DNA from: Candidatus Poribacteria bacterium
GTDB lineage: Bacteria > Poribacteria > WGA-4E > PCPOR2b
Reading direction: 5' to 3'
Assembly: GCA_965215015.1 (NCBI GenBank)
Contig: OZ244042.1
Coordinates: 3,456,001 to 3,520,000, forward strand
Length of the DNA: 64,000 bases
Part shown: positions 327 to 15,955 of the stretch, piece after piece
Position numbering within the stretch: the stretch's first letter is position 1
How the letters are laid out: every line of letters begins with the position of its first letter
Translations under genes and position numbers: made by a program
The notes under the pieces: model-generated
What the model was told of the DNA's origin: nothing
Databases searched by the model: none
The model's input: the letters and a program-made list of their open reading frames with translations, nothing else

Positions 327-374
327 TGGGATTATAATAAATACAATCTGTTGTACGTGTTCTTAGCATGAGTG

Positions 375-1896: not shown

Positions 1897-2030
1897 TGTG
1901 CTGCTTCCTTTCGATTTACGTCGATCTTGAATTTCGGGTATACTTTAATCAGGAACGTAGATTTGCGTTCCCTATGCCAGTTGTCAGCAATTATGGGAGA
2001 TTGGCTGAGGTGGTTCTCGTTAATTGAGGG

Positions 2031-2345
2031 GTGTGCATAATAATTGTCTGAATCAGGATTTTCTGGATTGAAGGATTAATAGGATTATGGGACTCAAGTT
2101 GACACCGAAGGGACAAGAAAGGTCTGCCGAGAAGTGTGCATAATAATTGTCTGAATCAGGATTTTCTGGATTGAAGGATTAACAGGATTATGGGACTCAA
2201 GTTGACACCGAAGGGACAAGAAAGGTCTGCTGAGAAGCGTGCATAATAATTGTCTGAATCAGGATTTTCTGGATTGAAGGATTAATAGGATTATGGGACT
2301 CAAGTTGACACCGAAGGGACAAGAAAGGCCGGCCGAGCAGCGTGC
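2031..2345. repeat. Three tandem near-identical 103-bp repeats upstream of cas1
   Basis: Units start at 2031, 2134 and 2237 (GYGTGCATAATAATTGTCTGAATCAGGATT...GGACAAGAAAGGYC), with a few bases of a fourth at 2340. Confidence 0.95.
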
Positions 2346-2407
2346 GTCATTTACTGCCCAAGGCTGACAACTTCTCAGAAGCATAACGCATCTGATTGCT
2401 ATTTCGG

Positions 2408-2575
2408 TCAACAGCGGAAAACTTTGGCTTGCCCCTCGAAGGGGGCTTGGAGGCGATGCCTTATTATACGCTCCACAAGAATATTGTTGAGACTGACGTG
2501 GAGGCGGGGAAGCGTATTCTCGTGGAGAAATTCGGTGAGGTCGCGGAGTTCTGTAACCGTAATTGAAAGCTCCAT
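2408..2575 (-). CDS. Small or truncated hypothetical protein (55 aa) coupled to the NDT gene
   Basis: ATG overlaps the NDT stop (TGATG); MELSITVTELRDLTEFLHENTLPRL...; may be a 5' gene fragment. Confidence 0.4.
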   Translation of the reverse strand: MELSITVTELRDLTEFLHENTLPRLHVSLNNILVERIIRHRLQAPFEGQAKVFRC

Positions 2576-3108
2576 CACCCGCCTCCTTCTAACTCGATAT
2601 CAGTATGGAACGCGCGGCTACTCGCGTTCCATACATCTTTTTTGCCCCCGGCGTCTCTAGCCCATTGATAGATAGAACTATGCGCCTTTTCGATGCTATC
2701 TAACGACGTTAGCAGCCAGTAAGCCCAATTCTGTCTGGGGAGCGCAGCAGCTAACATGAGGTTGATAGGATATTCGCTTCTCTCACCAGAATCGCGGAGG
2801 TCGTCATGAAAGATAAATACTTCTTTTTCGAGTATAGCCGCAGCGCCTAGTTCAAACATCACGCCCGGGTCAGGTGGTATCCCGTTGACGACAGCAAAAA
2901 TCCCGTCGGCTTCTTTGATGTCGAGAACGTTCTTCATGGCAAGTTCGTAAGCCCACTCCTCGGACTTGCCGATGATATGATTGTTCCGTTGAAACGGTTC
3001 CCAAACTTCAAGCCCTATCGCTTCAAGACGCTTGACGAATTCGGGGAGTACGAGTTGCCGTTCGACCGTTGAGAAGCCAAAGTCGTTGGCTAAATAGATG
3101 GTCTTCAT
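2575..3108 (-). CDS. Nucleoside 2-deoxyribosyltransferase (NDT)-family protein
   Basis: IYLA N-terminus, EVWEPF, ADGIFAVVNG-PPDPGVMFELG (catalytic Glu position) and YPINLML. Confidence 0.85.
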   Translation of the reverse strand: MKTIYLANDFGFSTVERQLVLPEFVKRLEAIGLEVWEPFQRNNHIIGKSEEWAYELAMKNVLDIKEADGIFAVVNGIPPDPGVMFELGAAAILEKEVFIFHDDLRDSGERSEYPINLMLAAALPRQNWAYWLLTSLDSIEKAHSSIYQWARDAGGKKDVWNASSRAFHTDIELEGGG

Positions 3109-3122
3109 TCAAACCTCCGCGG

Positions 3123-3548
3123 TCAACCTGAAAGCACGATGATTATGGATTCTGCTTGGAATGTCTCGAGTAAGAATCTCTCACTATCGAGAATTAACAG
3201 CGCTCCTTCCGTTACTGAGACTAAAACTACAGGGAGAACAGTCGAATCCATAAGAAAGTAAACTTTGCCCGCCCGGTAATAAAAAGCCCGGAAGTTTTCA
3301 ACCGTAATACGATCGTCGTCTATGCGAATTACTCCATTATCATCGTAGTCAGCAGCAGTGAGAGGATGTTCGATTACGATCACACTATCTGTCGAGCCAT
3401 CGAGCCCCTGCTCCCCTTTCGGACCCGGCAGCCCCTGTGGGCCCATTGACCCCATTGGCCCTGTAAGCCCTTGCGGCCCCGTGGGCCCCGGCGGCCCCTC
3501 GCATCCGATGGAAATAACTAATAGTAAAACACACAACATCTCTTTCAT
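3123..3548 (-). CDS. Collagen-like lipoprotein, copy 1 (12 Gly-X-Y triplets)
   Basis: Hydrophobic signal with SIG-C lipobox, then GPP GPT GPQ..., then a ~90-aa globular domain (IEHPLT...[14 protein letters not shown]). Confidence 0.85.
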
Positions 3549-3654
3549 TGCTTTATCCTTTCATGGTGCGCCCGAACAGGCACTTAAACAAGTTTTAATT
3601 GAATTGCCTATGTAAATAAATCCATTGATTGCTCTAATCAAAAGCGTTCTACGC

Positions 3655-3720
3655 GGTTGCATGATGCTTGATTTCCCGGCGTTATTAGCACCTGCGAGGA
3701 GCGTTAAAGAGCGGATTGTG
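3655..3720 (-). pseudogene. Fragment of AAA/ABC-type ATPase N-terminus (Walker A)
   Basis: IRSLTLLAGANNAGKSSIMQP inside ORF 3561-3749; no remainder of the gene is present. Confidence 0.6.
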
Positions 3721-4103
3721 TAAAAGTACCGCCGATAGCATCTCCTCAACCTGACTGAACCCGAACTGACTCGCCAATTCGGGAACTACTTCCTCGGCTA
3801 ACTCTCGATTTACATCAGAGAGGAAGGCTCGCCTTCCCATCACGTATTCCTGCCATTCGTCAAGTTCTTTACCAACATCATGTGCGAGAACGCTGGTTAA
3901 GAGCACTTGCTCCTCGGACTCCGTCAGTGGGGGTGAGAAAGTATGCTGAAGCAGCGGTAACAATGTGATTAAAGCGTCAATTTCGATAAGTGTATGGTCA
4001 AAATAAGCTTTGCTCAAAATTTCTTCGCTTTGCGATTTTTTTTCTTCCAATCGCGATTGAGCATGAATTCAACAGCCTCTCTTCTGAATGCTTGATAATC
4101 CAT
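3685..4103 (-). pseudogene. Truncated, frameshifted Cas3''/Cas10d-type HD-domain gene
   Basis: ATG 4103 with GGAGG RBS. Removing one base from the A8 run (4036-4043) and one from the T4 run (~4000) gives MDYQAFRR...KKKIAKRRNFEQSLFDHTL...LAHDVGKELDEWQEYV. Confidence 0.7.
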
Positions 4104-4145
4104 ATTTCAACGCCTCCATGGAAACAAATTCTTGAATTGATTATA

Positions 4146-4179
4146 ATTATAACCCCTATTCCCGTCAGAACACGTCGGT
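4146..4179 (-). promoter_or_regulatory. Putative WYL operator/promoter, copy 2
   Basis: Minus strand ACCGACGTGTTCTGACGG-N10-TATAAT; same motif and spacing as 14513-14546. Confidence 0.7.
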
Positions 4180-4417
4180 GATCGGAAAATTCTGCAATTT
4201 TTCGGGCGCGTGTCATATTTTTTTACGTCTTATCTGCCGCGACAGCAATGTTCGCAAGGGGCAATAGCGAACCCGCTAGCTGCAGAGTTGCCTGTTGTCA
4301 ACCCAATCTACGTTCTTAATCAGTGGTGTTAGCAGCGGTGGGGCACTAATCGAATGTCAACCCCGCCGCTGACTGGGTTGGACTTGGCAGTCTAGCTCAA
4401 CCAAAGTCAAAAACAGT

Positions 4418-5128
4418 TTAATTTTCGCCGGTAGTAGATGGGGTAACCAATCGTTCATAATCGCTAAAACTACGACTCGATCTGTGCAATCGGTAGGGAA
4501 GCATGGCAAGGAAGGTATGCCGTTCCTTGCCAACACGGATCTTCTTCCCACTGTAGATATCAGCTTGATCGAAACTCATTTTAGCGTTGCAATCATCTAA
4601 GTGTTGTAACTGACTTTCGATGTGCCATGTCTCTGCTTGTTCAACTAGAGATATGAAGTCAGAAGGTAGTGCTTCAACTGATTGGATCGGCGGAAGAAAC
4701 TGGAAGAACCCACCACGTTTCCCAAAGTAAGTAATATTAAGCAGTAGCCGCTGCAACTGTTCTTCCTGTGAATCATCGTGAATTTCAAAGCCCAACCTCA
4801 TTTTGCCAACGAAATGGACATATTCGCGGTAGCCGATGGTTCTCTCGAATCCCTCCTTATCGCTAGAATGAGGCGGCTTGAGGATACGAGTAAATACGTT
4901 GTTGACCAAAGCGCGTTCTGGCAAATGCACTGCTAACGACAAAGTGCGAATCCATTCCCACGCTTGTTTGCCGTAGTTGATTCCTTCTGTACGGAGAGCT
5001 GCATCCAACAAGCCCATCTTTATCGCATAGGGGGTTGGTGTCAACAACGTTTTACCGCCTGACGATGTGGCATTGCTCGGCTTGAGTGAAAAGAAGGTCG
5101 TGGGTTGATAAGTTGCTAAGACCCACAT
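4418..5128 (-). CDS. cas5: Type I-A-like Cas5
   Basis: N-terminal FFSLK...TLLTPTPYAIKMGL, YREYV and YFGKRGGF Gly loop; follows cas7. Confidence 0.85.
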   Translation of the reverse strand: MWVLATYQPTTFFSLKPSNATSSGGKTLLTPTPYAIKMGLLDAALRTEGINYGKQAWEWIRTLSLAVHLPERALVNNVFTRILKPPHSSDKEGFERTIGYREYVHFVGKMRLGFEIHDDSQEEQLQRLLLNITYFGKRGGFFQFLPPIQSVEALPSDFISLVEQAETWHIESQLQHLDDCNAKMSFDQADIYSGKKIRVGKERHTFLAMLPYRLHRSSRSFSDYERLVTPSTTGEN

Positions 5129-5129
5129 T

Positions 5130-6140
5130 TTAAGTGCCTCCGTTATAGTTAATTTTGTAAGGTGCAGTTGTGTTAGCTAGGTTTGCCATAACTTCAGCAT
5201 ACTCGCCTAATGAATCAAATTTGCAGAGTTTAATCGCGCTTGTCTCGATCTGATTGAGTGCGTCTGCGACACGTCTGATTTCGTCCTTGTACTTGTCATT
5301 AAGTGGACTAACTGTAGGTGCGGGCAAAATCTTTGTGCTGAGACTAACAATTCCGTCGAAGTTCACAAGATGAGGGTGCTGAGCACTTCGCATTGCGCCG
5401 TTTGGCTCAACAAAAGTACACAGTAGGCTTTCAATCAGTGTTTTGTATCGTTGATTGCGCTCACTGTCATCAATCGCGTATTTCTGGTTGATATCGTTGA
5501 AACCAAGCCGTGAAACTTCAATGCCTGCTACAACTGCGTAAACCCCTGAATTGGCTGGACGGTGGAAGATATTCTGACCGAGATTGGCACCACTTTCATC
5601 TGTATTATCACCATTATCTGCATTCTGCTGTCCACGATCAGGTACATATTTGACATGAAAGTAGTTGTCGGTCTTAGTCAGCTCTGGTATGCCCACCACC
5701 CAACCGAACTCTACAATTGACTTGCGGGGTGTGGCCTTCTTCTTGGATCGATTTGTAACAAGGATGCCTTCAATGTCATCCATTGCACACATTTCCAACA
5801 TCGTTGTAATCATTTTGTCATCCGGTGTGCTCTGTTCGTAGCTGCTGTCAAAGGTTGAATCGTCGAGAATGCGATTTGCGCTGAACCTTTGGCAACCTGA
5901 ACATAGCTTCAGTCCACTATTTCTGCTCAAGTGGAACAGATGTTCGGCTTGAATGTGTTTGAACATATCACCTGAAATTGCGTTCACGGCAGCGAGTTTA
6001 CCCGCTTGATCATAGATGTTAACCATTCGGGTTGCGATTTGATTTCCTTCACTGCCTTCGTTATTGAGGGAGTGCATATCAATTGTGGCTCTGCCGCAGA
6101 TGGTGAGGGAGTAAAGGGCTTTGCTATCACTCATTGTCAT
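5130..6140 (-). CDS. cas7: Cas7 (DevR/Csa2 family)
   Basis: HSLNNEGSEGN, AISGDMFKH, C-x-x-C and RKSIVEFGW motifs typical of DevR/Csa2-type Cas7. Confidence 0.9.
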   Translation of the reverse strand: MTMSDSKALYSLTICGRATIDMHSLNNEGSEGNQIATRMVNIYDQAGKLAAVNAISGDMFKHIQAEHLFHLSRNSGLKLCSGCQRFSANRILDDSTFDSSYEQSTPDDKMITTMLEMCAMDDIEGILVTNRSKKKATPRKSIVEFGWVVGIPELTKTDNYFHVKYVPDRGQQNADNGDNTDESGANLGQNIFHRPANSGVYAVVAGIEVSRLGFNDINQKYAIDDSERNQRYKTLIESLLCTFVEPNGAMRSAQHPHLVNFDGIVSLSTKILPAPTVSPLNDKYKDEIRRVADALNQIETSAIKLCKFDSLGEYAEVMANLANTTAPYKINYNGGT

Positions 6141-6200
6141 TCTCCTTTTCGGTATGAGGGGGTGTGGCGATATTGCTTGTTGGTCTATCTTGTCGAAAGA

Positions 6201-6641
6201 TTAAGAAGGAATATCTCCTGAACTTGTGTCAGTGGTTGTGGTAGTATCAGTTGTTGATACATCATCTCTGCTAGTAGAAGCGTATCCGAACGCCAATAGT
6301 AGATGACAAATTGTTTGAGGACCATGTTCATCAATTAATTGAACAATTTCGGTAATGTCGTCTTCACGGACACTTTTCCGCCAGTGTTGGGCTGAGTTTT
6401 CGGCTACGCTGGCATTTTCGGCGTTGAAAGAGTGAAGAAAATTACCTAACGCCTGAATGAACTCGTCCGGGTAGTTTGCCTTGCGTCGTAATTCTTGACC
6501 AAGTCCATATCGGATGTCATACGGAGGTCTTCCACTTTTTGCCATATATTGCAGCGTCACAGTACTTTGACGGATGGATCTGGCGATGTTTTGAAAGCCT
6601 TCGCTTTTAATAATTGGCGTAAGTTCTTTCTGCTTGCTCAT
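6201..6641 (-). CDS. Putative internally translated small subunit (Cas11-like), in frame within cas8
   Basis: GAGGAG-7nt-ATG inside cas8 (RBS 6649-6654, ATG 6641); 146 aa starting MSKQKELTPIIKSEGFQNIARSIR. Confidence 0.65.
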   Translation of the reverse strand: MSKQKELTPIIKSEGFQNIARSIRQSTVTLQYMAKSGRPPYDIRYGLGQELRRKANYPDEFIQALGNFLHSFNAENASVAENSAQHWRKSVREDDITEIVQLIDEHGPQTICHLLLAFGYASTSRDDVSTTDTTTTTDTSSGDIPS

Positions 6642-8006
6642 CAGTAGACTCCTCAAATTGGTTGCGCTCAACGGCTTAACCCAGAAGTTTTCCTTCACTA
6701 AGGCGTTGAGCAGATAGTTTGGATATTGTGATGTGAATTCAAAGAACGCTGTAAAATCGTTTGCGGAAAGAAAATTTCGATAGTGCTGGAGTAGTTGGTA
6801 ACCCTCACTCCGTTCCTCCTCTAAACTTTTTACGATGTTGAGGTGTTCCTCTATCACCCCCTGGTACACTTGCACATCATTTCTATCTTTAATGTTCATC
6901 CAGCTGGGTAGATTGATAAAGGAAAGGTTCATTACGGCGGCCGAGTTGCCGAGATCCTTATAAAATGCGGTGTGTAAGCCCGCTACAAAGTTTTCAGGGG
7001 CACGCCCCTGCAACTCCACAGCTAAGGAAGCACTTGCTTCTGCTTCACAGTGTCGTAGAAAGCACTTTGTGTAGCTGAGTGCAGCAAAGATGTCCGATTT
7101 AATTGCGTGTCGGTTCCCTACCACATCCCTGAATCTTGCGAAAATTGTGTTGTGCTCATCCAATGTGATATTGACCGGGGCTAGTGCAAAGGTCTTCCGA
7201 TCCTTCGGGGGCTCGCCCTGTTTTACTAACACGAAGCGGGGTACTGCACAATGGTAGAAACCAACCATCTTCAGATATTCGCATAGCCAGAAGCTGTTTA
7301 CATTCTTCATTGACAAGCTGCTTGCTTTGGTGGCGTTCTGTCCTTTGCCTGTGCTTGGGTTGAACACTTGGAGCATATTCAAGCGATCTTTACCGATAAA
7401 CTGTTTCTCTTTTTTGAGTTTTTTCCATGCTTGCTCACAGGTCGCAACTGGGTTTGGAATTTTAGCATGGAGTGCCAGCAACAGCTTGAGTAACTCCGCG
7501 AAGTGCTCACGGGTTTCATACCAATTGGTGACGGCTGAATTGTAAGCACTAATCCCTGACATCATGTTGATTTTCTGCCAAATGCGATAATTGGGGTCTG
7601 GTTCACTTTCTCTCAAAACTGTAAGTGCTTCGCTGTCGTCGGCATTCTGCTTTAGTGTATCACCTAGAGTCCTGCGTAATTCGTTGTAGTCATCGTAACG
7701 CTCTTTTTCTCCGTTGTAATCTATGTTGTAAATATCCTCCGGCATTGTTTCACTGTTCTTTGGTGTTTTAATAAAAGGGATAGGGGCAAAGGAGCTTTTT
7801 AAATTCTCAACCCATTCTGCTTGTAACGCAGGAATGAGTTCAATCGCATAGGTTGTCCCCCTATCCAAAATCTTGATAGTATGGGACTCATATTCGCCGA
7901 GGGTACGTTGCAAAAGTTGGTGTAAGATAGTTGCTAATCCATAAGCGGAACAGACATCAGCAAATGTGCCTGTTTGTTTGTCAACGAAATAGGTCTGTTG
8001 GTACAT
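6201..8006 (-). CDS. cas8: Large Cascade subunit Cas8a-like
   Basis: 601 aa between cas3 and cas7; NPSTGKGQN motif; helical C-terminal domain. Confidence 0.75.
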   Translation of the reverse strand: MYQQTYFVDKQTGTFADVCSAYGLATILHQLLQRTLGEYESHTIKILDRGTTYAIELIPALQAEWVENLKSSFAPIPFIKTPKNSETMPEDIYNIDYNGEKERYDDYNELRRTLGDTLKQNADDSEALTVLRESEPDPNYRIWQKINMMSGISAYNSAVTNWYETREHFAELLKLLLALHAKIPNPVATCEQAWKKLKKEKQFIGKDRLNMLQVFNPSTGKGQNATKASSLSMKNVNSFWLCEYLKMVGFYHCAVPRFVLVKQGEPPKDRKTFALAPVNITLDEHNTIFARFRDVVGNRHAIKSDIFAALSYTKCFLRHCEAEASASLAVELQGRAPENFVAGLHTAFYKDLGNSAAVMNLSFINLPSWMNIKDRNDVQVYQGVIEEHLNIVKSLEEERSEGYQLLQHYRNFLSANDFTAFFEFTSQYPNYLLNALVKENFWVKPLSATNLRSLLMSKQKELTPIIKSEGFQNIARSIRQSTVTLQYMAKSGRPPYDIRYGLGQELRRKANYPDEFIQALGNFLHSFNAENASVAENSAQHWRKSVREDDITEIVQLIDEHGPQTICHLLLAFGYASTSRDDVSTTDTTTTTDTSSGDIPS

Positions 8007-8019
8007 CAGTTCTCACTCC

Positions 8020-10437
8020 TTATATACTGATTTGTGAAGTTGCTTCTTGGTCAGCGAGTCGTAAGGCTCGGACAATTAAAAAATAAGTCAACAGCGAAGG
8101 TGTGTTGCTTGGGGACACAAACATACCGGTTAATGACCGGGGTTGATCTTGTGTACAAATCTTTTCTAAGTGGGTTTGAGCCACCTGCCCCGCCTCCCCA
8201 ATCATTTGTAAAGTTGTTTCGATTGAAGTTTGGAAATCGGGATGGAGTTCGTAAGTCTGGTATTGATCGGCTTTCGGCGCATGATGACGCGCAATTGCAG
8301 TAAGACTAGCTTTGAATAAAATCTCTTGATCGTAGAAAGTAGCCCCTAGTAAAGGTGCGACGGCGCGCATACTCTCAACAGCATGTGGGGGCCGTTTAAC
8401 AGGGAAATGTTTCTCCTTTTCGCGTACTGCGGAGTTACCTCGGTTGTAATCGGTATGGGCCGCCATATAGTTTGGATCAATAGGTTTATCAATCAACCGT
8501 TGCCATTCATGTGCCCACCGCTGCCAACCACACGTCAGTTTTCCGATATCGTGCAGAGCAATGCAGAGTCGAATCGTCTGATCAATTGCGCCCTCTTTTG
8601 TTTCCAACCTCTGCTCAAGTTGGGAGGCGGCGTAACTTAGTTCAGCCTCTAGCCCAGCGTCGTATACGTTTAGCAAGCGTTCGATGTGTTCCGTGTATGT
8701 CTCACGGCGATAACCTGTGCTGAGCTCACGTTCTCGGGGGGCTTCGCCCTCAGAGATGCTTAATGCACAAGGCTTTTCCCCCGTTTCAAGCTGAAAGCCT
8801 ATTTTGTCATCGTATGCGACCAATTGTGGATGCACAATAAACAGTGGCGAAATCCCTAAAGTTTCCTTCTCCTTTACTTCGCGCCAGTTGTAGGTGATTG
8901 TAGTACGGCTGTTTGGTGAATCGTCCTCGGCTTCAATAGGATACTTTAGCACCCAACCCAGTCCTTGCTTTTGTGCCTCTTCTTGAAGTTTATCCCACGC
9001 TCCAAAGAGTGTGCCGCGATAGAGATTGAAGCCTTCAACTCGAAACGGTTTATCAAGTGTCTCAGGTTTGTCATGCACGAGAAGCGTTCGGGAATCATTC
9101 TTACGAATCAACTCACGAGCAAGAGCCAATTCTTGGTTAGATATTGCCCTCTCCATTTTATCGCGCTTATCGCTGCTCGCAAGTTGCTCTAATATCTTCT
9201 CATCGCTTTCGCGGTGGACTTCGTTGATAACCTCTTGCTCTGCCGTAAAGTTCAACACCCTTCCGTTTCGTTGCTGGAATGCAGCTATTGTCAGTTCACA
9301 AGTTTTCTTTTCGTAGGGGGCGTAATTTAGTGAGCCATCAGGCCGAGATGGCACGGGATAGATTCGCACTGTGCCTGATTCATTTTTGAACCTAGCACAC
9401 CGTCCGGCCCGTTGAAAAATTGCGCTTGCTGGTGCCAGTTCTGTGTGCAAATTTTCACACGTAATGTCTAAGCCAACCTCGATCACCTGTGTAGCAACCA
9501 AAATCACGTTATCGGGGCCCACACCTCGTTTGAAACGCTTGCGTATCATATCCTCTTTAGCTTTACGATCTTCCTTCAGAAAGCGAGAGTGCAATAGCAA
9601 CACTTCCGTTGTGCCACGCTGTGGGTTATCCCGCAACGACTGATACATCTTCTGTGCCCGTGCCACCGTATTGCAAATGACAATACTGCGTTGCTGGTGT
9701 TGAGTGATAACGGCGTCTGTGCTGCACAAAAGTGTTTGATTCTCAATCTTATATTCGCGGCGTTTTCCACACTGAGAAGGAATTTGTTTTAGTTCGTTCT
9801 CAGTCACCTGAACAACTTCGGCGTTAAAATATTCGCTCAAACGGTTGAGTAGCGGTTCCGAAAAAGTCGCAGTCATCAGTAAAAACGGTGTGATACCATT
9901 GAGCATTTTCAGCATTTCAATCACAGTTCCCAACGAAGTATCAGGATCGAATAAGTGAAATTCATCAAAGACTAGATATGCGCCAACAACTGCTCCCGCG
10001 TTGACATTACCCTGACGTAACCCTAGCGCATAAGGGATGTTAAGAAAACTACTCAAGACCTGATCGATTGTCGTAAAAATCAAGTCGCTACGAAACTGAC
10101 GGTCCTCCTGATTTTCACCCGTCTGAATGTTTGCCGTGAGAGTCTGTTGTCTTCCTATTGGCGATTCTTGGAAGTCGGTGTGAAAATTCTTTGCCAAAAC
10201 CCGCATTGGCGTGGCGTAAAGCAACTTCCGGGGAAATGGTTTGTCTTCCTGCTGGGCTAGCAGGAACGGAAACAACGCGGCTTTCGTCTTGCCCGCCCCC
10301 GTTGGTGCTTGTAAAATCACATTGCGCCTGTTTAACAGATGCTGTGCTACCTTGCGTTGAAATGTAAAGGGAATGAATTCAAACATTCTCTGAAACTGGT
10401 TATCCCAATACCGTTTATCTTTATCAAAATTTGACAT
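8020..10437 (-). CDS. cas3: Cas3 helicase with C-terminal HD nuclease
   Basis: APTGAGKT, DEFH, MTAT, ATQVIEVGLDI and QRAGRCAR helicase motifs; then H...LHDIGK...HH...LADQ HD domain. Confidence 0.95.
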   Translation of the reverse strand: MSNFDKDKRYWDNQFQRMFEFIPFTFQRKVAQHLLNRRNVILQAPTGAGKTKAALFPFLLAQQEDKPFPRKLLYATPMRVLAKNFHTDFQESPIGRQQTLTANIQTGENQEDRQFRSDLIFTTIDQVLSSFLNIPYALGLRQGNVNAGAVVGAYLVFDEFHLFDPDTSLGTVIEMLKMLNGITPFLLMTATFSEPLLNRLSEYFNAEVVQVTENELKQIPSQCGKRREYKIENQTLLCSTDAVITQHQQRSIVICNTVARAQKMYQSLRDNPQRGTTEVLLLHSRFLKEDRKAKEDMIRKRFKRGVGPDNVILVATQVIEVGLDITCENLHTELAPASAIFQRAGRCARFKNESGTVRIYPVPSRPDGSLNYAPYEKKTCELTIAAFQQRNGRVLNFTAEQEVINEVHRESDEKILEQLASSDKRDKMERAISNQELALARELIRKNDSRTLLVHDKPETLDKPFRVEGFNLYRGTLFGAWDKLQEEAQKQGLGWVLKYPIEAEDDSPNSRTTITYNWREVKEKETLGISPLFIVHPQLVAYDDKIGFQLETGEKPCALSISEGEAPRERELSTGYRRETYTEHIERLLNVYDAGLEAELSYAASQLEQRLETKEGAIDQTIRLCIALHDIGKLTCGWQRWAHEWQRLIDKPIDPNYMAAHTDYNRGNSAVREKEKHFPVKRPPHAVESMRAVAPLLGATFYDQEILFKASLTAIARHHAPKADQYQTYELHPDFQTSIETTLQMIGEAGQVAQTHLEKICTQDQPRSLTGMFVSPSNTPSLLTYFLIVRALRLADQEATSQISI

Positions 10438-10783
10438 TGTAAAACCTCCTTGAGTTTGATACGTGATTTATAATTCAAGTTGCTACTTGTCGTCCCGTTG
10501 GGGCTTTGGGTTGTAGTGACTCGTTCTTGATATACACATCGCGCTCCTCTAGAGCGCGAAGATTGGACCTATTACTATTCTATAGACATCTTGCTCCATA
10601 TGACCCTGTATGATGAAAGCCCATTGCTTGGTACAGCGATCTCAGCAAGTTGCATTGCCCGTTGCTAAATCATTGCGAAAGGCAGAGTCCTCCAGTTTTA
10701 ATAGAAATATTGATGGATTTTCAATAACCAACAACTTGGGTTAAAATGGTAGCCACAAAGGCTACCTCCATTATCTCTACGCC

Positions 10784-11722
10784 TTATCCAACCTTATACT
10801 TCCCCAACCCAAACGTTGCATTTTTGCCGACGTGTAGAAACGCACCCAACGCCACAAATGGCAGGAACGCCGCCAAATCGCCCGCATAGGTTACGCTGCC
10901 GACTAGCCCGCCGAGTTGCATTTTCTGATTCTGCCGCGACGAATAGCGCGTCCAATCGTGCCAACGTAATTTGCTCTGGACCGTTTGGACGGTTTCTGCC
11001 TGTGCGATGAGTCCCTTAAAATCGAGATTCAGCGATTCGCCGCAGTGGAAATATGCCAAGGCGGAGATGCGTCCAATTAAACGTCGCCAGAAGAGGTGGA
11101 ACGGGAGTTTATCCGTTATTTGCCCCTTGTGTGTGACCCGCGTGGGGGTGAGTAGGTGGACGGTCAATGAATCGGTTGGCAAAGATTCTACTTGCCGCTG
11201 GATTTCGTCGAAACAGAGTGCGTTATTGCGGTTGTGTGCCATCTGGGTGTCGCTGTCGTAGATTGATTCCCCACTATCGGTCAGGACTTGGGTCAGTTGG
11301 AAACGGCCGCGCCCCTTGCCGATGCCGATCTCACCCAAATCGCGGAAGCTGACAAGAAAATAGGGGAGGTAGTCGATGGCACGGCCGATAAGGGTGAGAC
11401 GGAACGCAAACGAATTGCCTCGGCGGTATTCACCTCGTGTGTTCAACGGATCGATGACAAAGGGTCTTGGCACATCGCCGTATGTCCGCAGTTGTTGCGC
11501 GCCCTCAAATGGGGCGGTCTCGAAGATGTACGGGTATGGGCAGACCGTTTTAAGGGTGCAGTCCCGGCAGTCAATGGGCCCTTGGGTGCAGACCATTTTT
11601 CGGAAGGCGTGTCCGAATCCGCCGCGGAGTGTGGAGCCGGCGTAGGGGGGCATCAGAATGGTTGAGAGTGCTGTTAGGATCACATGGTAGCGTGCGAATC
11701 GGAAGTTTTGAAGTGGATTCAT
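10784..11722 (-). CDS. cas6: Cas6 crRNA-processing RAMP endoribonuclease
   Basis: GSTLRGGFG, Cys cluster, VPRPFVI and C-terminal HVGKNATFGLG Gly loop. Confidence 0.92.
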   Translation of the reverse strand: MNPLQNFRFARYHVILTALSTILMPPYAGSTLRGGFGHAFRKMVCTQGPIDCRDCTLKTVCPYPYIFETAPFEGAQQLRTYGDVPRPFVIDPLNTRGEYRRGNSFAFRLTLIGRAIDYLPYFLVSFRDLGEIGIGKGRGRFQLTQVLTDSGESIYDSDTQMAHNRNNALCFDEIQRQVESLPTDSLTVHLLTPTRVTHKGQITDKLPFHLFWRRLIGRISALAYFHCGESLNLDFKGLIAQAETVQTVQSKLRWHDWTRYSSRQNQKMQLGGLVGSVTYAGDLAAFLPFVALGAFLHVGKNATFGLGKYKVG

Positions 11723-11982
11723 TATTGTGTCCTTTTCTTACATTGTCCGCTTTTCATCGCGTCATTGGGAGATGATTGATTCTCTTTTTAATAAAAAAAA
11801 CAATATTTATTTCAGTCCCCTTTTCATCGGGGCAAAATTTAAGTGAGGGGTGCTCATAATAATTGTCTGAATCGCAGATAGAGTCGATGGTACAGAAAGC
11901 ACGGATACAGATATGGGGCGCAGGTTGTTCAGGCATATCGTGCGGGGTAATCATAAAAAGGGACTGTGGCACGATACAGGTA

Positions 11983-12057
11983 TCATAAAGCAGGTAGTAC
12001 AAGCTGCCGCTCGACTGTTGAGAAACCGAAGTCGTTCGCTAAATAGATTGTCTTCAT
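11983..12057 (-). pseudogene. NDT gene 5' fragment (about 22 codons of homology)
   Basis: [24 protein letters not shown]; identical start to the intact NDT at 2575-3108. Confidence 0.8.
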
Positions 12058-12521
12058 TCAAACCTCCGCGGCCCACCCGAAAGCACGATAACTAGGGATT
12101 CTGCTCCGATCTTGAGTAAGTATTTGTCCTCATCGGAAATAAACAACGAGCCTTCCGCTACTGCGACTATCAAGATATAAGCACCCGAATCGATATGAAC
12201 GTAAATTTCGCCTGCCCGGTAATACAAAGCCCGGAAGTTTTCAAGCGTGATACGATCATCATCTATGAAAACTATTCCATTATCGTAGTGATCAATGGTA
12301 AGAGGCCGTTCGATTACGATCACACTATTTGCCGGGCCGGGGAAACCCTGTAGACCCTGCTCCCCTTTCTGCCCCGGCAGCCCCTGCGGGCCTATTGACC
12401 CCATTGGTCCTGTAGGCCCTTGCGGTCCTGTAGGACCCGGCGGCCCCTCGCATCCGACGAATATAACGAATAGTAAAACACTCAACATCAGTGAGTTTGT
12501 CAACGCTTTCATGACTTTCAT
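12054..12521 (-). CDS. Collagen-like lipoprotein, copy 2 (13 Gly-X-Y triplets)
   Basis: FVG-C lipobox, collagen run and a divergent version of the same C-terminal domain. Confidence 0.85.
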
Positions 12522-12744
12522 TGCTTTATCCTTTCATGTTGCGCCCGAACAGGCACTCTTGCGTAAGCGATCTGAAGCCGCTTACCGTTATTTTAGTGAT
12601 GCCTTGAGTCGTTTTTTATAGCCTTTCATGGCGTGTAGCCCATTGTATCGACACCGACTGAGATACAGTTATCTCAAGGTTCTCAGGATCGCCTCCGAGC
12701 AGATCGAGTGCAGCAGTGCCAGTGACGCGCCTTTCGTTCTGCAA
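12521..12744. repeat. ~225-bp segment duplicated at ~14265-14492 (unknown gene tail plus collagen-gene leader)
   Basis: Both copies encode ...LQNERRVTG.AALDLLGGD.ENLEITVSQSV.IQWATRHERL* and share the leader hairpins GTAAGCG...CGCTTAC and GTGCCTGTTCGGGCGC. Confidence 0.9.
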
Positions 12745-12978
12745 CCGCAGCGATTCTTTTTTAAAGCGGTCTCTCATTCGTACCGCTAACTCGGATCGGT
12801 TCTCAATGTCGAAGAAGCAGCCCCACTGTTCGGATTTGCCGACGATACGATTGTTCCGTTCAAACGGCTCCCAGACTTCAAGCCCTATCGCTTCAAGCCG
12901 CTTGACGAATTCGGGGAGCACGAGCTGCCGTTCAACTGCTGAGAAACCGAAGGCGTTGGCTAAATAGATAGTTTTCAT
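12616..12978 (-). pseudogene. Chimeric ORF: NDT N-terminus (~53 aa) fused to the C-terminal tail of an unknown gene
   Basis: Matches the intact NDT up to GKSEQW (~12823), then switches to sequence whose tail recurs at 14363-14491. Confidence 0.8.
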
Positions 12979-13737
12979 TCAGACCTCCCGCGGTGAATCC
13001 TCAAGCACGATGACTATGGCTTCTGGTTCTATCTGAAGTAAGATTTTGTCAGGATCGGCAATCCGCACCGCTCCTTCCTCGACTCCGACCACCAATACGG
13101 GTCTAAAATGTGTATCAATAAGAACATAAACGTGACTGTCCCTGTAATACAAAGCTCGGAAGCTTTCAAGAGTGATACGATCGTCAAATATGCGAATGAT
13201 TCGATTATGATCGTAGCTCGCAGCAGTAAAAGGCTGTTCGATGACGATCACACGATTTGCCGGGCCGGGGAACCCCTGCTCCCCTTTGGGTCCCGTGAGT
13301 CCTGTAGCCCCTTTCGGACCCGGAGGCCCTTCTATGCCCTGCAGACCCTTTGGCCCTATGGGTCCGAGTGGGCCTTCTATGCCCTGTAGACCTCGCTCAC
13401 CCCGTAAACCTTGTATGCCCTGCAGGCCCTGTAGACCTTGGGGGCCCTCGGGTCCGATTAGCCCCGGCGGCCCTTCTATGCCTTGCGGCCCTCGCTCACC
13501 TCGTAACCCTTCTGTGCCTTGCGGCCCTCGCTCACCTCGTAACCCTTGTATGCCCTGCAGGCCCTGTAGACCTTGTTCGCCTTGTTCGCCCTGTTCGCCC
13601 GCCGGCCCCATTGGACCCATTGGACCCGTCGGCCCTGTGGGCCCCGGCGGCCCCTCGCATCCGACGAATATAACGAATAACAAAACACTCAACATCCGTG
13701 AGTGTATCAACGCTTTCATTGCTTTCATGACTTTCAT
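12979..13737 (-). CDS. Collagen-like lipoprotein, copy 3 (44 Gly-X-Y triplets)
   Basis: FVG-C lipobox, long uninterrupted collagen run with GLRGER three times, divergent C-terminal domain. Confidence 0.88.
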
Positions 13738-13741
13738 TGTT

Positions 13742-13816
13742 TTATCCTTTCATGGTGCGCCCGAACAGGCGCTGAGTTGAGAAACCGAAGTCGTTCGCTA
13801 AATAGATGGTCTTCAT
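13742..13816 (-). pseudogene. NDT gene 5' fragment (14 codons) joined to the next collagen-gene leader
   Basis: [14 protein letters not shown], then a junction at ~13775 into GCGCCTGTTCGGGCGC. Confidence 0.8.
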
Positions 13817-13830
13817 TCAAACCTCCGCGG

Positions 13831-14265
13831 TCAACCTGAAAGCACGATGATTATGGATTCTGCTTGGAATGTCTCGAGTAAGAATCTCTCGCTATCGACA
13901 ATTAACAGCGCTCCTTCCGTTACTGAGACTAAAACTACAGGGAGAACAGTCGAATCCATAAGAAAGTAAACTTTGCCCGCCCGGTAATAAAAAGTCCGGA
14001 AGTTTTCAACCGTAATACGATCGTCATCGATGCGAATGACTCCATTATCATCGTAGTCAGCAGCAGTGAGAGGATGTTCGATTGCAATCACACTATCTGC
14101 CGAGCCATCGAGCCCCTGCTCCCCTTTCGGACCCGGCAGTCCTTGTGGTCCCATTGACCCCATTGGACCTGTAGGCCCTTGCGGCCCCATGGGACCCGGC
14201 GGCCCCTCGCATCCGACGAATATAACGAATAGAAAAACACATAACATCTCTTTCATGACTTTCAT
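13831..14265 (-). CDS. Collagen-like lipoprotein, copy 4 (12 Gly-X-Y triplets), near-identical to copy 1
   Basis: FVG-C lipobox; mature protein differs from copy 1 at about 6 positions. Confidence 0.85.
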
Positions 14266-14512
14266 TGCTTTATCCTTTCATGTTGCGCCCGAACAGGCAC
14301 TCTTGCGTAAGCGATCTGAAGCCGCTTACCGTTATTTTAATGAGGCCTTGAATAGTCATTTTTTATAGCCTTTCATGGCGTGTAGCCCATTGTATCGGCA
14401 CTGACTGGGATACAGTGATCTCAAGGTTCTCAGAATCGCCTCCAAGCAGATCGAGTGCAGCAGCGCCGGTTACACGCCTTTCGTTTTGCAACTTAACTGA
14501 GTTTTCAATTAT

Positions 14513-14546
14513 ATTATACAGATCCATACCGTCAGAACATGTCGGT
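14513..14546 (-). promoter_or_regulatory. Putative WYL operator/promoter, copy 1
   Basis: Minus strand ACCGACATGTTCTGACGG-TATGGATCTG-TATAAT, immediately downstream of the WYL gene. Confidence 0.72.
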
Positions 14547-14571
14547 TGTCTAAAATTTTTGTTGTTTTTTA

Positions 14572-15561
14572 CTAGCTCTGGTATTTTTTTATCATTTTTG
14601 TGATTTCTTGGGCGATTTCCTCACGAAAATCGGGGGGCGTGAGCACTTCCGCACAACTGCCCCATTGCAAAATCTGACGCATTAGCCCTTCTCGGCCTTC
14701 GGTATCGAAATGCAGCTCGATTTGGTCGTCCCCGAGGTCAATCTGTTTTTGCAAACCCTGCCATTTCTGGGCGCGTACCCAGCGGGACGCGGGTGGGTTC
14801 ACACGGATGATCGCCTGTACAGGTTGGTCTTTCATGCCGCCGAAGCCGCGTGTGATGTACTCGTTGAGGTCAAAGTCCTCCTGAAGTTCAAAGGTTTCGT
14901 CGAGAAGTGTCAGGGAGCGCATCCGGTCGTCAAATACAAATTCGCGGAGTGCTTTTCGGGTATGGCAATAGCCGATTAGTCGCAGCGCGTTGTCCGAATA
15001 GGCGATGCCGTAAGGGTCAACCTTGCGTTGGCGGGATTCGCCCCGGCTCGCAGAATGATAGAGGAGGTCGAGGCGTTTCCGTTCTTCACAGGCGGTTTGT
15101 GCTTGGCTGATGTGTGGTGCGACATTTTGAAAATCTGTCACGGGTTGGAGTCGAAACGCGAGGATGTTTTGAATACGGTTAAAGTAGTCCTGACTTTCAA
15201 CCGGCAGTGTGGCGTGAATTTTTTTAAGGGCGTTGGTGAGTGCTTCAAAGTATGGCGTTCCTTTGAGGAACGTGGTGGCATCTTGTGCGATGGTCAACGC
15301 CAACCGTTCGGGTACCGACAGATCGAGTGCTGGGAACTGGTAATCTTCCTTGAATCTATAGCGCACTTGCTGCCCCTCCCTCTCTTTCAGAATTGATGGA
15401 AAATACCGCATGAGGCTAGGGAGGTCCCGGTCAATCGTGCGTTCACTGACACCGATCTCAGCAATCAGCTGTTGCTTTGTGATACCGTAACGTCTGTTAA
15501 TCTTCTGCAGAATCAGCCATTGCCGCTCTATTTGCTTTTCGTCTGCAATTCGTTGGGGCAT
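14572..15561 (-). CDS. wHTH-WYL-WCX transcriptional regulator
   Basis: HTH (GVSERTIDRDL), WYL domain (RKVDPYGI...LIGYCHTRKALREF) and WCX (ILQWGSCAEVLTPPDFR). Confidence 0.93.
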   Translation of the reverse strand: MPQRIADEKQIERQWLILQKINRRYGITKQQLIAEIGVSERTIDRDLPSLMRYFPSILKEREGQQVRYRFKEDYQFPALDLSVPERLALTIAQDATTFLKGTPYFEALTNALKKIHATLPVESQDYFNRIQNILAFRLQPVTDFQNVAPHISQAQTACEERKRLDLLYHSASRGESRQRKVDPYGIAYSDNALRLIGYCHTRKALREFVFDDRMRSLTLLDETFELQEDFDLNEYITRGFGGMKDQPVQAIIRVNPPASRWVRAQKWQGLQKQIDLGDDQIELHFDTEGREGLMRQILQWGSCAEVLTPPDFREEIAQEITKMIKKYQS

Positions 15562-15731
15562 TATTTGTTCCTTTTTCTGAATTGGTATTTCTATGAAGGA
15601 TGAACAAACGGAATGTAGATTTCCGTTCTCTACGAATTAATCGAGCGATTCGGGTTAGAGGTAAGGCCGGGTAAAAGTGTTGTTAAAATTTTGGGATGTG
15701 AAGTTTTTTGGGGGGATGGTTCTATTTTTCG

Positions 15732-15760
15732 TTGCAAATTGCTATTGATCATGGTAAAAT
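15732..15760 (+). promoter_or_regulatory. Sigma70-type promoter upstream of ORF 15956
   Basis: TTGCAA-17nt-TAAAAT. Confidence 0.5.
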
Positions 15761-15955
15761 GATCTTGCTTTCGCTTTCAAAATCGGCAAAAGAAAAGCCC
15801 CGCGTGATCTGATGGTGAAAGTAATTGTTTGCCGTGAACCTATAGACACGACAGACAAGACAAGACGAAAACTGATAAGTTCTAAAGCCGCTATCGCTCC
15901 CAAGATGGAGGCTTTTCCTTTGCTGGGCAATATTTTACTACATTTGAGGTAAGGA

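Follow-up and report, generated by a model that had tools for sequence, protein, structure and literature searches.

The collagen-like lipoprotein genes (col) in this CRISPR-Cas locus belong to a family that is probably a member of WYL regulons and not a Cas accessory. Their placement among cas genes would then be a case of promoter capture, in a slot whose cargo varies. The window, the whole stretch of 64,000 nucleotides that was analysed, comes from a Candidatus Poribacteria genome. The reading that best accounts for the evidence as a whole, which we hold with middling confidence, is that col encodes a horizontally acquired, WYL-controlled envelope lipoprotein, transcribed here with cas6. 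The locus and its relatives in a second phylum, which lie behind the same kind of regulator, point to a putative cell-envelope protein induced by stress or phage.

The type I CRISPR-Cas locus hosts four intact col paralogues, all co-oriented with the cas genes; every gene, promoter and remnant of the window described below is on the minus strand. A wHTH-WYL-WCX transcription regulator is encoded at 14572-15561 (Pfam WYL, 4.6e-16; WCX, 3.7e-14; HTH_11; PADLOC CRISPR-associated WYL, 1.4e-39). Downstream of it are col4 (13831-14265, 144 aa), col3 (12979-13737, 252 aa) and col2 (12054-12521, 155 aa), followed by cas6 (10784-11722; Pfam CRISPR_Cas6, 8.4e-18; PADLOC Cas6, 2.2e-108). The effector module (4418-10437) consists of cas3 with a helicase and a C-terminal HD domain (8020-10437), a cas8-like gene (6201-8006), cas7/DevR (5130-6140) and cas5 (4418-5128). 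The fourth paralogue, col1 (3123-3548, 141 aa; 3123-3584 with its 36-nt short leader), lies between cas5 and cas1 (787-1896; Pfam Cas1, 6.9e-73), and cas2 follows at 375-626 (Pfam Cas2, 5.7e-16). A CRISPR array of 25 repeats is located 0.8-3.4 kb to the left of the window. The sequence-only reading had described four intact paralogues at these positions, three between WYL and cas6 and one between cas5 and cas1, and both the genes and their neighbours were confirmed by open reading frames, Pfam and PADLOC.

All four col open reading frames matched Pfam Collagen (PF01391) above the cut-off, with an E-value of 2.1e-23 for the long-stalked col3. A lipobox-compatible sequence, [IF][VI]GC-EGPPGP, was present in all four proteins, the lipobox expression itself having been run on two of the copies (P0001 and P0009). 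The Gly-X-Y runs of col1, col2, col3 and col4 contain 13, 14, 45 and 13 triplets when the Gly preceding the Cys is counted, and 12-44 otherwise. Each protein ends in a head of about 90 aa, and the heads fall into type A (col1 and col4), type B (col2) and type C (col3). The identity to the col1 head is 96% for col4, 57% for col2 and 53% for col3, and I-E-x-P-x-T, DDRIT-x-E-x-F-R and YYR are among the invariant residues, so that the proposed division into three divergent types sharing these motifs holds. The head had no sequence match in Pfam or PDB. Hence, col is a small predicted lipoprotein with a lipobox Cys, a collagen segment immediately after it, and a head of an undescribed family. It is likely that the product is a lipidated, trimeric envelope protein; trimerisation, head fold and localisation are all predictions from sequence. 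Between head types, dN/dS was 0.68-0.93 for the head, compared with 0.20-0.37 for the signal peptide and collagen part. Although dS between head types was 0.3-0.5, all four frames are intact; the heads diverge fast while the reading frames stay open. A head dN/dS near 1 is also expected from relaxed constraint after duplication.

3' of every col gene is a gene of the nucleoside 2-deoxyribosyltransferase family (NDT) or its stub, and we therefore regard the four copies as decayed versions of one col-NDT cassette. Only col1 keeps the full NDT gene (2575-3108, 177 aa; Pfam Nuc_deoxyrib_tr PF05014, 6.9e-23 over the full profile), which starts 14 nt past the stop codon of col1 and carries a GGAGG of its own. 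The other copies retain stubs of about 42, 66 and 180 nt. The junction between col4 and col3 (13738-13830) is made of a spacer, the start stub of about 42 nt (NDT residues 1-14 by tblastn) and the 37-nt short leader of col3. Downstream of col3, the first ~60 NDT codons are fused in frame to a remnant of a gene designated X (12616-12978; PF05014 at 0.0011, below the cut-off; 78% identity to NDT residues 1-60 by tblastn). The 3' end of the inserted block (11765-12057) contains the start stub of about 66 nt, a fragment of a dispersed repeat that measures about 100 nt, and an orphan CRISPR half-repeat (11808-11832). The leader 5' of col4 (14266-14492) comprises a gene-X 3' remnant of about 42 codons, a palindrome with arms of 7 bp (GTAAGCG-N9-CGCTTAC), one short hairpin and the Shine-Dalgarno site, and it recurs at 12501-12745 with 91-93% identity. 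A full-length gene X was absent from the source genome, as were col family members beyond the four copies. The start of a small open reading frame of about 50 aa (2424-2590) overlaps the stop codon of the full-length NDT gene. The 3' half of this frame consists of ancestral sequence 5' of cas1, and the frame had no match in Pfam or PADLOC. An NDT paralogue elsewhere in the source genome is flanked by Schlafen/AlbA_2, PLD-SNF2 and AAA_21 genes.

The array had been open to suspicion as an assembly artefact, which was dispelled by unique junction pieces found with 0 differences in Logan contigs from two studies. Runs X1 and X4 of one study, which may be the source sample itself, both contain 12019-12462 and 12621-13438; in addition, X1 contains 13797-14139 and 14368-16500, and X4 contains 14368-15055. 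Run X5 of the second study contains 12676-13313.

Two promoters tie the cassettes to the putative WYL operator. P1 (14508-14546) carries an operator-like imperfect palindrome, ACCGACA-N5-TGACGGT, over its -35 box, and with a score of 10 out of 12 it is one of the three best promoter-like sites in 1-16000. Three col copies, in a decayed tandem array, interrupt the cas6 operon within its 5' leader, some 25 nt past the P1 -10 box. The fourth copy, which alone keeps an entire NDT gene, is found in the cas5-cas1 interval; P2 (4140-4179), the second copy of the motif and a Cas10d remnant all precede it. Across the 5.94-Mb genome there are just two copies of the 18-nt palindromic motif. Both are in the CRISPR locus, 5' of col cassettes, and each overlaps the -35 box of one of the top promoter-like sites (P1 or P2). 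The motif is kept just downstream of WYL in relatives; the WYL orthologues of four genus relatives are 82-85% identical. In the relative L048, the stretch preceding cas3 matches P2 at 90% identity. From P1 to cas6, the minus strand contains only two weak terminator-like sites, both within coding sequence. Since no convincing terminator separates the array from cas6, co-induction with Cascade/Cas3, as proposed by the sequence-only reading, is a fair reading of the shared WYL-adjacent promoters, and col is probably transcribed with cas6 in this genome; a role of col as Cas accessory proteins found no support. WYL-dependent expression of col seems reasonably likely.

Judged by comparison with the genus, the cassettes are genome-specific insertions. 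The gap between homologous blocks from WYL to cas6 is 56-96 nt in three relatives and 2,749 nt in the window, where homology picks up again at 11764, just past the inserted block. Likewise, L048 has 118 nt from cas5 to cas1, where the window has about 2,500 nt. Neither col nor NDT had a tblastn match in any of six relative loci, and the col family was missing from all 175 other genomes of the source phylum (present in 1/176). The fragment upstream of col1 (3685-4050) is a pseudogene remnant of the N-terminal HD part of Cas10d (PADLOC Cas10d, 1.7e-30, profile positions 30-126 of 847), and a second Cas10d copy was absent from the source genome. A history of insertion and horizontal transfer is highly probable.

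Col family members were found in 30 of 168 genomes of the second phylum, the only other one in which the family is common. The sequence-only reading had suggested scoring how often such homologues neighbour cas, WYL or prophage genes, and the outcome was divided. No phmmer match (E<=1e-6) to Cas1, 2, 3, 5, 6, 7 or 8 of the window was obtained at any of 40 col loci, and no col relatives were found on viral contigs. The association with WYL stood: a WYL gene occurred within ±10 kb of col in 14/40 loci, upstream and co-oriented in all 14, and conversely 14 of 24 copies of the close WYL orthologue have col at most 10 kb downstream. These 14 loci are syntenic kin, so the association across phyla represents only two independent evolutionary events. 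Even so, WYL genes are scarce, with 1-3 per genome, and adjacency in two phyla is therefore not expected by chance. The NDT partner was next to col in none of the 40 loci, and one JGI metagenome contig shows the same WYL-col arrangement.

In the second phylum a palindrome related to the window motif, TGCGAC-RYGATCT-GTCGCA, precedes the start codon by about 65 nt in 19 of 42 col genes (20 of 43 hits), and it also overlaps the WYL stop codon. It was counted 57 times in 732 kb, compared with 0 for the reversed control, and genome-wide it clusters at the WYL-col region (7/7 copies in genome G290, 4/5 in G159). Its position at -64 to -66 is fixed in most type-1 col genes, including those at five loci without a WYL gene within range; hence, it is a property of the col gene and not of the place. 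The palindrome and the window motif have 12-13 of 19 positions in common and share the layout CGAC-N7-G[TA]CG. By gene neighbourhood and predicted sites, the conserved partner of col is the WYL regulator with its palindromic site and not the cas genes.

The surroundings of col include a PDDEXK_4 protein, which matches the PADLOC candidate system PDC-S26, as well as an ADP-ribosylglycohydrolase and ParE. An IetA-like double-AAA ATPase gene lies 28 nt past col. No PADLOC model matched col or NDT themselves, and a literature search returned no paper that connects collagen-like proteins with WYL or with defence islands. These defence-island-like neighbours and the fast-evolving heads are only circumstantial hints of function. 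The characterised relatives of the regulator, CapW and BrxR, are released by DNA damage or ssDNA. We propose that the wHTH-WYL-WCX regulator would bind the palindrome over the -35 box as its operator, and that upon its release the col genes would be transcribed ahead of and along with the cas genes. By analogy with CapW and BrxR, the trigger may be DNA damage or ssDNA; CapW is reported to sense ssDNA (PMC11662680). After export and lipidation, the products would form trimers by way of the collagen segment, displaying three fast-evolving heads on a stalk of 10-40 nm at the envelope, where they might bind a variable ligand. The ligand class that we favour is surface structures of phages or other invaders, which would make col an envelope-level exclusion layer. 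This is the weakest step, and an anti-phage role is plausible, though less likely than not.

A somewhat unlikely alternative is that col genes are passenger cargo that entered a defence island at a site prone to recombination. The products would be ordinary collagen-like surface adhesins, or proteins that bind matrix or host, comparable to Scl, Lcl and Pcl, and nearness to WYL and cas would show only where foreign DNA is tolerated, with no function in common. In the relative G038, a sigma-70-like (r2/r4) gene occupies the slot between P1 and cas6. Since the slot takes unrelated cargo, a hot spot of recombination may account for insertion there, rather than selection for control by WYL. Effector modules are swapped among relatives, and the cassettes are bordered by dispersed repeats and the Cas10d relic, all of which indicates heavy recombination. 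In the second phylum, 23 of 43 col hits lack both the palindrome and a nearby WYL gene, and variable heads would suit adhesins that bind a host or ligand, such as Pasteuria Pcl7 (PMC10987987). However, mere tolerance of foreign DNA does not explain a palindrome at a fixed distance even where WYL is out of reach, two genomic motif copies that both precede col cassettes, or the adjacency to so scarce a regulator in two phyla. A true Cas accessory function, with lipoproteins coupling envelope events, for example, to interference or adaptation, is very improbable. It would fit the shared orientation, the probable transcription with cas6 and the copy between cas5 and cas1, as well as run X6, in which a related strain from a different study apparently has WYL, the leader with a col start, a col2-like piece, cas6 and a different effector module. 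Yet the cassettes are missing from all four orthologous WYL-cas6 loci that are intact in the genus, one of them with the same effector subtype, the second-phylum loci lack matches to the window Cas proteins, and no Cas-associated model of PADLOC or NCBIfam matched col. The strict form of the sequence-only reading, with col as part of the Cas machinery, was not supported.

An envelope-structural or damage-response role with no invader target, as an Lpp-like periplasmic spacer or tether or as an envelope or division modifier under a WYL-type DNA damage response, is improbable. WYL regulators, including PafBC and DriD, do govern non-defence damage responses, the lipidated Cys adjoins a rod that would form trimers, and stalk length varies from 12 to 44 triplets; nevertheless, fast head divergence, patchy distribution and horizontal acquisition are ill-suited to housekeeping, and the neighbours look defence-like. 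We give hardly any credence to non-functional debris, be it duplicated pseudogenes in decay or a repeat that was assembled wrongly. Decay is clear in the NDT copies, and the Cas10d relic sits beside col1, but the four col frames are intact at a dS of 0.3-0.5 between head types with dN/dS below 1, each copy keeps its Shine-Dalgarno sequence and leader, and the junctions recur in contigs of two studies.

The WYL-controlled envelope lipoprotein that we favour resembles several known systems in part. Membrane-associated accessories of type III CRISPR systems, for example CorA, Cam1 and Csx23, are tied to signalling by cyclic oligoadenylates, and their association with cas genes is conserved. Like them, col is a predicted envelope protein encoded inside a CRISPR-Cas locus, but the locus is of type I, col has no CARF or SAVED domain and its cas link is not conserved. 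Superinfection-exclusion lipoproteins of prophages and plasmids (Llp of T5, Cor, Ltp and TraT) are small envelope lipoproteins acting against incoming phage or DNA, the functional analogy drawn by the sequence-only reading; unlike these, col carries a collagen stalk and is not in a prophage. In Lpp (Braun's lipoprotein), a trimeric rod directly follows the lipidated N-terminal Cys. The Lpp rod is an alpha-helical coiled coil, whereas that of col would be a collagen triple helix; Lpp ends in a C-terminal Lys cross-linked to peptidoglycan and col in a globular head, and Lpp is a housekeeping protein, whereas the col family is patchily distributed and was gained by horizontal transfer. Bacterial collagen-like surface proteins (Scl1/Scl2 of Streptococcus, BclA of Bacillus, Lcl of Legionella and Pcl of Pasteuria) have the same Gly-X-Y triple-helix stalk and variable globular head, a 'lollipop' trimer, and are secreted and surface-associated, with head variability tied to ligand specificity, as would hold for col. 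Those families use an LPXTG or basal-layer anchor, whereas the predicted anchor of col is an N-terminal lipobox Cys abutting the collagen; its stalk is very short in three of four copies, its genes lie behind putative WYL-type operators, and the NCBIfam Lcl, SclA and SclB models gave weak collagen-only matches far below their cut-offs (27 vs 500 bits). WYL-regulated defence operons include CapW-CBASS, BrxR-BREX and Sll7009-type I-D CRISPR. The col cargo, under putative WYL regulation, differs in encoding a lipoprotein predicted to be exported, in which nuclease, nucleotide-signalling and other known effector domains are all absent. It shares with them the co-oriented upstream wHTH-WYL-WCX gene, the palindrome over the promoter, and a variable, horizontally mobile cargo in defence-island-like surroundings.

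The sequence-only reading of the window had described four intact, co-oriented collagen-like lipoprotein paralogues, and this description was borne out. All four genes are intact open reading frames on the minus strand: col1 (3123-3548, 141 aa), col2 (12054-12521, 155 aa), col3 (12979-13737, 252 aa) and col4 (13831-14265, 144 aa). Each product contains the collagen triple-helix repeat (Pfam Collagen, PF01391; 28.0-82.2 bits, cut-off 27.2), with uninterrupted Gly-X-Y runs of 13, 14, 45 and 13 triplets in col1, col2, col3 and col4, respectively. The N-termini consist of a Lys-rich n-region and a hydrophobic core ending in [IF][VI]GC, with EGPPGP directly after the Cys, and VIFVGC-EGP is common to col3 and col4. 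The lipobox pattern applied, [LVI..][ASTVI..][GAS]-C, after PROSITE PS51257, matched col1 (Cys16) and col2 (Cys24) and 76 of the 89 stored proteins overall, a lipoprotein signature. Judging from these features, the col proteins are probably lipidated, trimeric and located in the envelope.

The heads, of about 90 aa, fall into three types. Those of col1 and col4 share 96% identity; the head of col1 shares 57% with that of col2 and 53% with that of col3. As the earlier reading had also held, the divergent types keep the motifs I-E-x-P-x-T, DDRIT-x-E-x-F-R and YYR, which were invariant in the head comparison. The head domain is previously undescribed: Pfam gave no significant match for 9 heads, and the broader head profile A3 found nothing in the PDB at E ≤ 10. 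In PADLOC-DB 2.0, col1 and its partner gene NDT (nucleoside 2-deoxyribosyltransferase family) had no match at E ≤ 0.01 and are thus not among its known or candidate defence proteins. Between head types dN/dS was 0.68-0.93 at dS 0.30-0.50, and for the signal peptide and collagen part it was 0.20-0.37. Since every head is still an open reading frame, the heads are under some constraint, and their high dN/dS is compatible with either diversifying selection or relaxed constraint.

Relatives of the family were sought with several profiles. A profile of the four heads retrieved 6 representatives at E ≤ 0.001 among 1.84 billion, and profile A3, from 2,373 candidates, retrieved 88 clusters at E ≤ 0.01, of which two belong to the window itself (the figure of about 88 refers to clusters at 90% identity). 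Nearly all members have the same build of lipobox, Cys, [EQ]GP, collagen and head. The named records come from MAGs labelled Latescibacterota or Gemmatimonadaceae, and in the phylum of these records, a second phylum where the family is common (phylum B), it was present in 30 of 168 species genomes. Profile A4 found no relative on genome contigs and none on metagenome contigs, and viral contigs yielded none with either A4 or A6. With A6, 20 loci were obtained from metagenome contigs; the only full-length relative was L071, and the other 19 match the signal peptide and collagen part alone. A phage tail-fibre origin was rejected because of the lipobox, the lack of phage genes nearby and the lack of viral-contig relatives. 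One metagenome contig (L086, 8392-9018) encodes a lipobox-C-EGP-collagen protein with an unrelated, larger head, and the lipid-anchored collagen stalk may be a module common to several head families.

The col genes of the window are one cassette that was copied and has decayed. Downstream of col1 stands a full NDT gene, whose ATG lies 14 nt past the col1 stop behind its own GGAGG and whose product matches the whole PF05014 profile (positions 1-117 of 117; 81.5 bits, cut-off 28.8). A D-x-G-x-x-F-E-L-G stretch is visible in it, with a Glu at the presumed catalytic position. The other col genes are followed by NDT pieces of about 42 nt (col4), 180 nt (col3) and 66 nt (col2). A leader of about 230 nt is common to col4 and col2 (91-93% identity), and only its last 36-37 nt are kept in front of col1 and col3. 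The col4/col2 leader contains the last ~42 codons of another gene, gene X, of which the genome has no complete copy. This remnant (12616-12840 and 14366-14492), ending ...ITVSQSV.IQWATRHERL, travels with the col leader. Neither the remnant nor the small ORF downstream of NDT had a Pfam or PADLOC match; because of this and of the missing full copy, we take the remnant to mark the donor context. An integron-like array was among the ideas set aside; palindromes were noted at the cassette borders. The GC content of the inserts (0.48-0.50) does not distinguish them from the genome (0.49), and no further copy of the col family was found in the 5.94-Mb genome. The genome's only NDT paralogue (156 aa, 51% identical) lies at genome 5874001-5887000 (L069) in an apparent defence island, flanked by a Schlafen/AlbA_2-HATPase_c_4 protein, a PLD-SNF2 helicase and an AAA_21/AAA_15 ATPase.

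The array was compared with Logan contigs of sequencing runs. In runs X1 and X4, which belong to one study and may be the source sample, unique pieces were reproduced with 0 differences, and run X5 of a second study covered 12676-13313 (NDT fragment and col3 head), again with 0 differences. Run X6, from a third study, contained a relative at ~95% identity with WYL, the leader and col start, a col2-like piece and cas6; the cassette was apparently acquired before the split from this strain. Parts without contig cover in X5 or X6 were not counted as absence. A run labelled sponge metagenome contained only a 0.07 share of the words, and no habitat conclusion was drawn from it. Three tandem repeats of ~103 nt at 2025-2350 belong to a family dispersed and tandemly repeated throughout the genome (also at ~11850-11890 and ~300-330); this query accounted for most of the 641 blastn hit lines, and the contig joints of the Logan comparison jump between its copies.

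The cassettes lie in a CRISPR-Cas locus on the minus strand. Its order is WYL (a wHTH-WYL-WCX regulator gene, 14572-15561), the promoter-like site P1, col4, col3, a truncated NDT, col2, cas6, cas3 (a helicase with a C-terminal HD domain), a Cas8-like large subunit, cas7 (DevR family), cas5, a second promoter-like site P2, a Cas10d N-terminal fragment, col1, the full-length NDT, the small ORF, the three ~103-nt repeats, cas1 and cas2. Just past cas2, to the left of the window and 0.8-3.4 kb from its end, is an array of 25 repeats (37-nt repeat, period ~73; genome 3452602-3455207). Since the Cas3 helicase-HD, Cas5, Cas7, large subunit, Cas6, Cas1, Cas2 and this array are all present, the locus is a complete type I system. 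The best PADLOC models were Cas8a and Cas5a, and no NCBIfam subtype model scored above its cut-off. Rfam gave no match on window positions 1-16500 at E ≤ 0.1. Upstream of cas6, the inserted block contains an orphan half-repeat (11808-11832), 22 nt of which are identical to the CRISPR repeat. The 5' leader of cas6 has a repeat-like hairpin (GACGCGATGAAAAGCGGAC; ~11745-11763) that is conserved in four relatives. Cas6 might bind to this hairpin or regulate its own expression there, or the hairpin might be where processing parts col from cas6 RNA. The fragment at 3685-4225 is a frameshifted, truncated N-terminal part of Cas10d, the type I-D large subunit, with its own copy of the operator-like motif and promoter; it has no second copy in the genome and is either a relic of effector-module exchange or was imported with the cassette.

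Comparison within the genus placed the insertions. WYL matches at E ≤ 1e-20 were found in 16 of 20 genus genomes, the window's own included, and four genus genomes have an intact WYL orthologue (82-85% identity) beside cas6. WYL, P1, cas6, cas1 and cas2 are 80-94% identical at the nucleotide level in all four of these intact relatives. No col or NDT match was found in any of the six relative loci fetched, col is absent from all four intact orthologous loci, and the head is absent from all 175 other genomes of the phylum. With 176 species genomes in the collection, the phylum is too small for the cyanobacterial origin considered at first, which was dropped. Three relatives have 56-96 nt between the WYL/P1 block and that of cas6, where the window has 2,749 nt (14513 to 11764), and the cas5-to-cas1 gap measures 118 nt in genome G038, which has the same effector subtype, versus ~2,500 nt in the window. 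Because the relatives lack col and have short gaps, and the phylum otherwise lacks the head, the comparison indicates that the cassette was acquired horizontally and then amplified.

Homology breaks ~25 nt after the P1 -10 box, and therefore the array stands in the 5' leader of the cas6 operon. In G038 the slot between P1 and cas6 (L048, 16936-17610) holds a 224-aa sigma-70 family gene (r2 1.4e-09, r4 4.7e-05) in place of the col array, and this slot is thus a variable cargo position with three fillings within the genus: nothing, a sigma-factor-like gene or the col array. Behind the sigma-70 gene, too, stands a half-site that resembles the CRISPR repeat. Type I effector cassettes are exchanged as modules within the genus: from cas6 to cas1, three genomes (loci L046, L047 and L049) have a swapped effector module compared with L048 and the window (4400-10450), and their Cas3 is only 24-31% identical to that of the window. 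Just downstream of the P1 -10 box, the cas6 leader of L046, L047, L048 and L049 has a terminator-like hairpin (GAAACCGAG...CTCGGTTTC then a T-run), which could be an attenuator; the window lacks it because the insertion replaces this stretch.

In phylum B, the regions ±10 kb around 43 hits were collected as 40 loci. A wHTH-WYL-WCX gene was present in 14 of the 40, and in all 14 it lies 0.2-9.6 kb upstream of col, with both genes on one strand. Conversely, of 24 copies of close WYL orthologues (≥71% identity, 23 genomes), 14 are followed by col no more than 10 kb downstream. WYL genes are rare, with 1, 1, 3 and 3 PF13280 hits in four phylum B genomes and 2 in the window genome. The phylum B proteins align with the window's WYL over the full length (24-28% identity, E 3e-25) and match the same PADLOC WYL models, and one metagenome contig also has WYL upstream of, and co-oriented with, col. 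Col is therefore found downstream of and co-oriented with WYL in independent lineages, with only two independent events: the phylum B loci count as one because they are syntenic kin, and the window is the second because WYL was inherited vertically with the CRISPR locus and col was inserted. The conserved partner of col is WYL, not cas.

The same regions contain further genes. A 691-aa cytoplasmic double-AAA ATPase, whose C-terminal AAA domain resembles IetA (1.6e-24), begins 28 nt after col and forms an apparent operon with it. Among the variable genes that separate WYL from col are a PDDEXK_4 nuclease (PADLOC candidate PDC-S26), a DUF4377 lipoprotein, an ADP-ribosylglycohydrolase and ParE. 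In loci L011, L012 and L022-L034, a 19-nt palindrome stands in front of col and also of several other genes downstream of WYL, and the region looks like an array of separately marked cassettes. The settings of col in phylum B and of the NDT paralogue in the window genome are defence-island-like, by guilt by association only. In the portions of the literature accessible to our search, collagen-like proteins were not connected with WYL domains, defence islands or symbiont lipoproteins in any paper.

Both phyla carry palindromes in front of col. In the window genome, ACCGAC[AG]TGTTCTGACGG occurs exactly twice in 5.94 Mb at up to 2 mismatches (backwards control, 0), at 14529-14546 and 4162-4179, both on the minus strand upstream of col cassettes. 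Each copy overlaps the -35 box of a promoter-like site scoring 10 of 12, the top score on the strand. This motif forms an imperfect inverted repeat, ACCGACA-N5-TGACGGT, which the relatives keep just after WYL. The phylum B palindrome, TGCGAC-[GA][CT]GATCT-GTCGCA, overlaps the WYL stop codon and recurs 64-66 nt before the start codon of most type-1 col genes. For 20 of 43 hits (19 of 42 genes), five of them in loci without WYL in reach, it shares the strand of the head and lies at most 450 nt upstream of it. In 732 kb of phylum B loci it was found 57 times versus 0 for the reversed control, and 7 of 7 (G290), 4 of 5 (G159), 3 of 5 (G264), 2 of 3 (G299) and 1 of 3 (G300) genome-wide copies fall within the WYL-col region. 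By comparison, the motifs of the two phyla share 12-13 of 19 positions in the layout CGAC-N7-G[TA]CG. Hence, in the window as in phylum B, a palindrome of the regulator's flank is repeated in front of col, and we infer that this palindrome is the putative operator of WYL and that col is a WYL regulon member in both phyla.

What was observed is the protein architecture, the history of the cassette, its insertion behind P1 and P2, and the occurrence of col together with WYL genes and palindromes in two phyla; the mechanism considered here starts from these. The WYL repressor would sit on the palindromic operator, and DNA damage or infection would release it; for CapW, release is reported to be caused by ssDNA or DNA damage (PMC11662680). 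It is reasonably likely that WYL represses P1 and P2 and that release switches on col along with the cas genes. The released cell would then display trimeric stalks, whose rapidly diversifying heads would bind or block phage particles or their entry. That the heads bind phage or invader structures and so provide envelope-level exclusion, as the sequence-only reading had proposed, is a tentative idea and somewhat unlikely.

Several other explanations were weighed. The col genes could be passenger adhesin-type cargo in a recombination hot spot, a reading to which the changing contents of the P1-cas6 slot and the swapped effector modules would lend themselves, and on the other side stand the palindromes and co-oriented WYL genes of phylum B; we regard it as possible, if somewhat unlikely. 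A non-immune envelope or damage-response role would fit the lipobox, the stalk and a damage-released repressor, and the neighbouring genes of phylum B resemble a defence island; this role appears improbable. The claim that the col proteins are Cas accessories drew on their place within the cas operon and did not hold: phmmer searches (E ≤ 1e-6) with the window's Cas1, 2, 3, 5, 6, 7 and 8 and NDT matched none of the 40 phylum B loci, and the four intact genus loci do without col, so that a true accessory role is very improbable. Debris or artefact, to which the truncated NDT pieces and the Cas10d relic might point, is the least credible of these explanations, the col frames being intact; nor is the array an assembly artefact, the outcome that the earlier reading had named as undoing it, since contigs of two studies reproduce its unique pieces. 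The boldest reading considered is that collagen-stalk lipoproteins form a hitherto unrecognised class of envelope immunity proteins under WYL control, their cassette amplified to three head types in the cas operon leader, with envelope exclusion and CRISPR interference induced together; taken as a whole, it is speculative and rather unlikely to hold in every part.

To our knowledge, the cargo of WYL-type regulators has so far consisted of intracellular nucleic-acid or nucleotide-based defence systems. If the reading of col as a WYL-controlled envelope protein is true, an exported, structural-looking protein family would join this cargo, and the locus would be a concrete case in which accessory genes have captured a CRISPR-Cas operon's regulated promoter. 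The consensus CGAC-N7-G[TA]CG offers a testable operator common to WYL regulators of two phyla. If the passenger explanation is right, the locus still documents a modular, recombination-prone cas operon leader.

Among known systems, the col proteins share the bacterial collagen-like 'lollipop' build with Scl, BclA, Lcl and Pcl, but differ from them in the N-terminal lipid anchor, the very short stalk and the new head. In their putative regulation, they resemble the cargo of CapW/BrxR-type WYL repressors.
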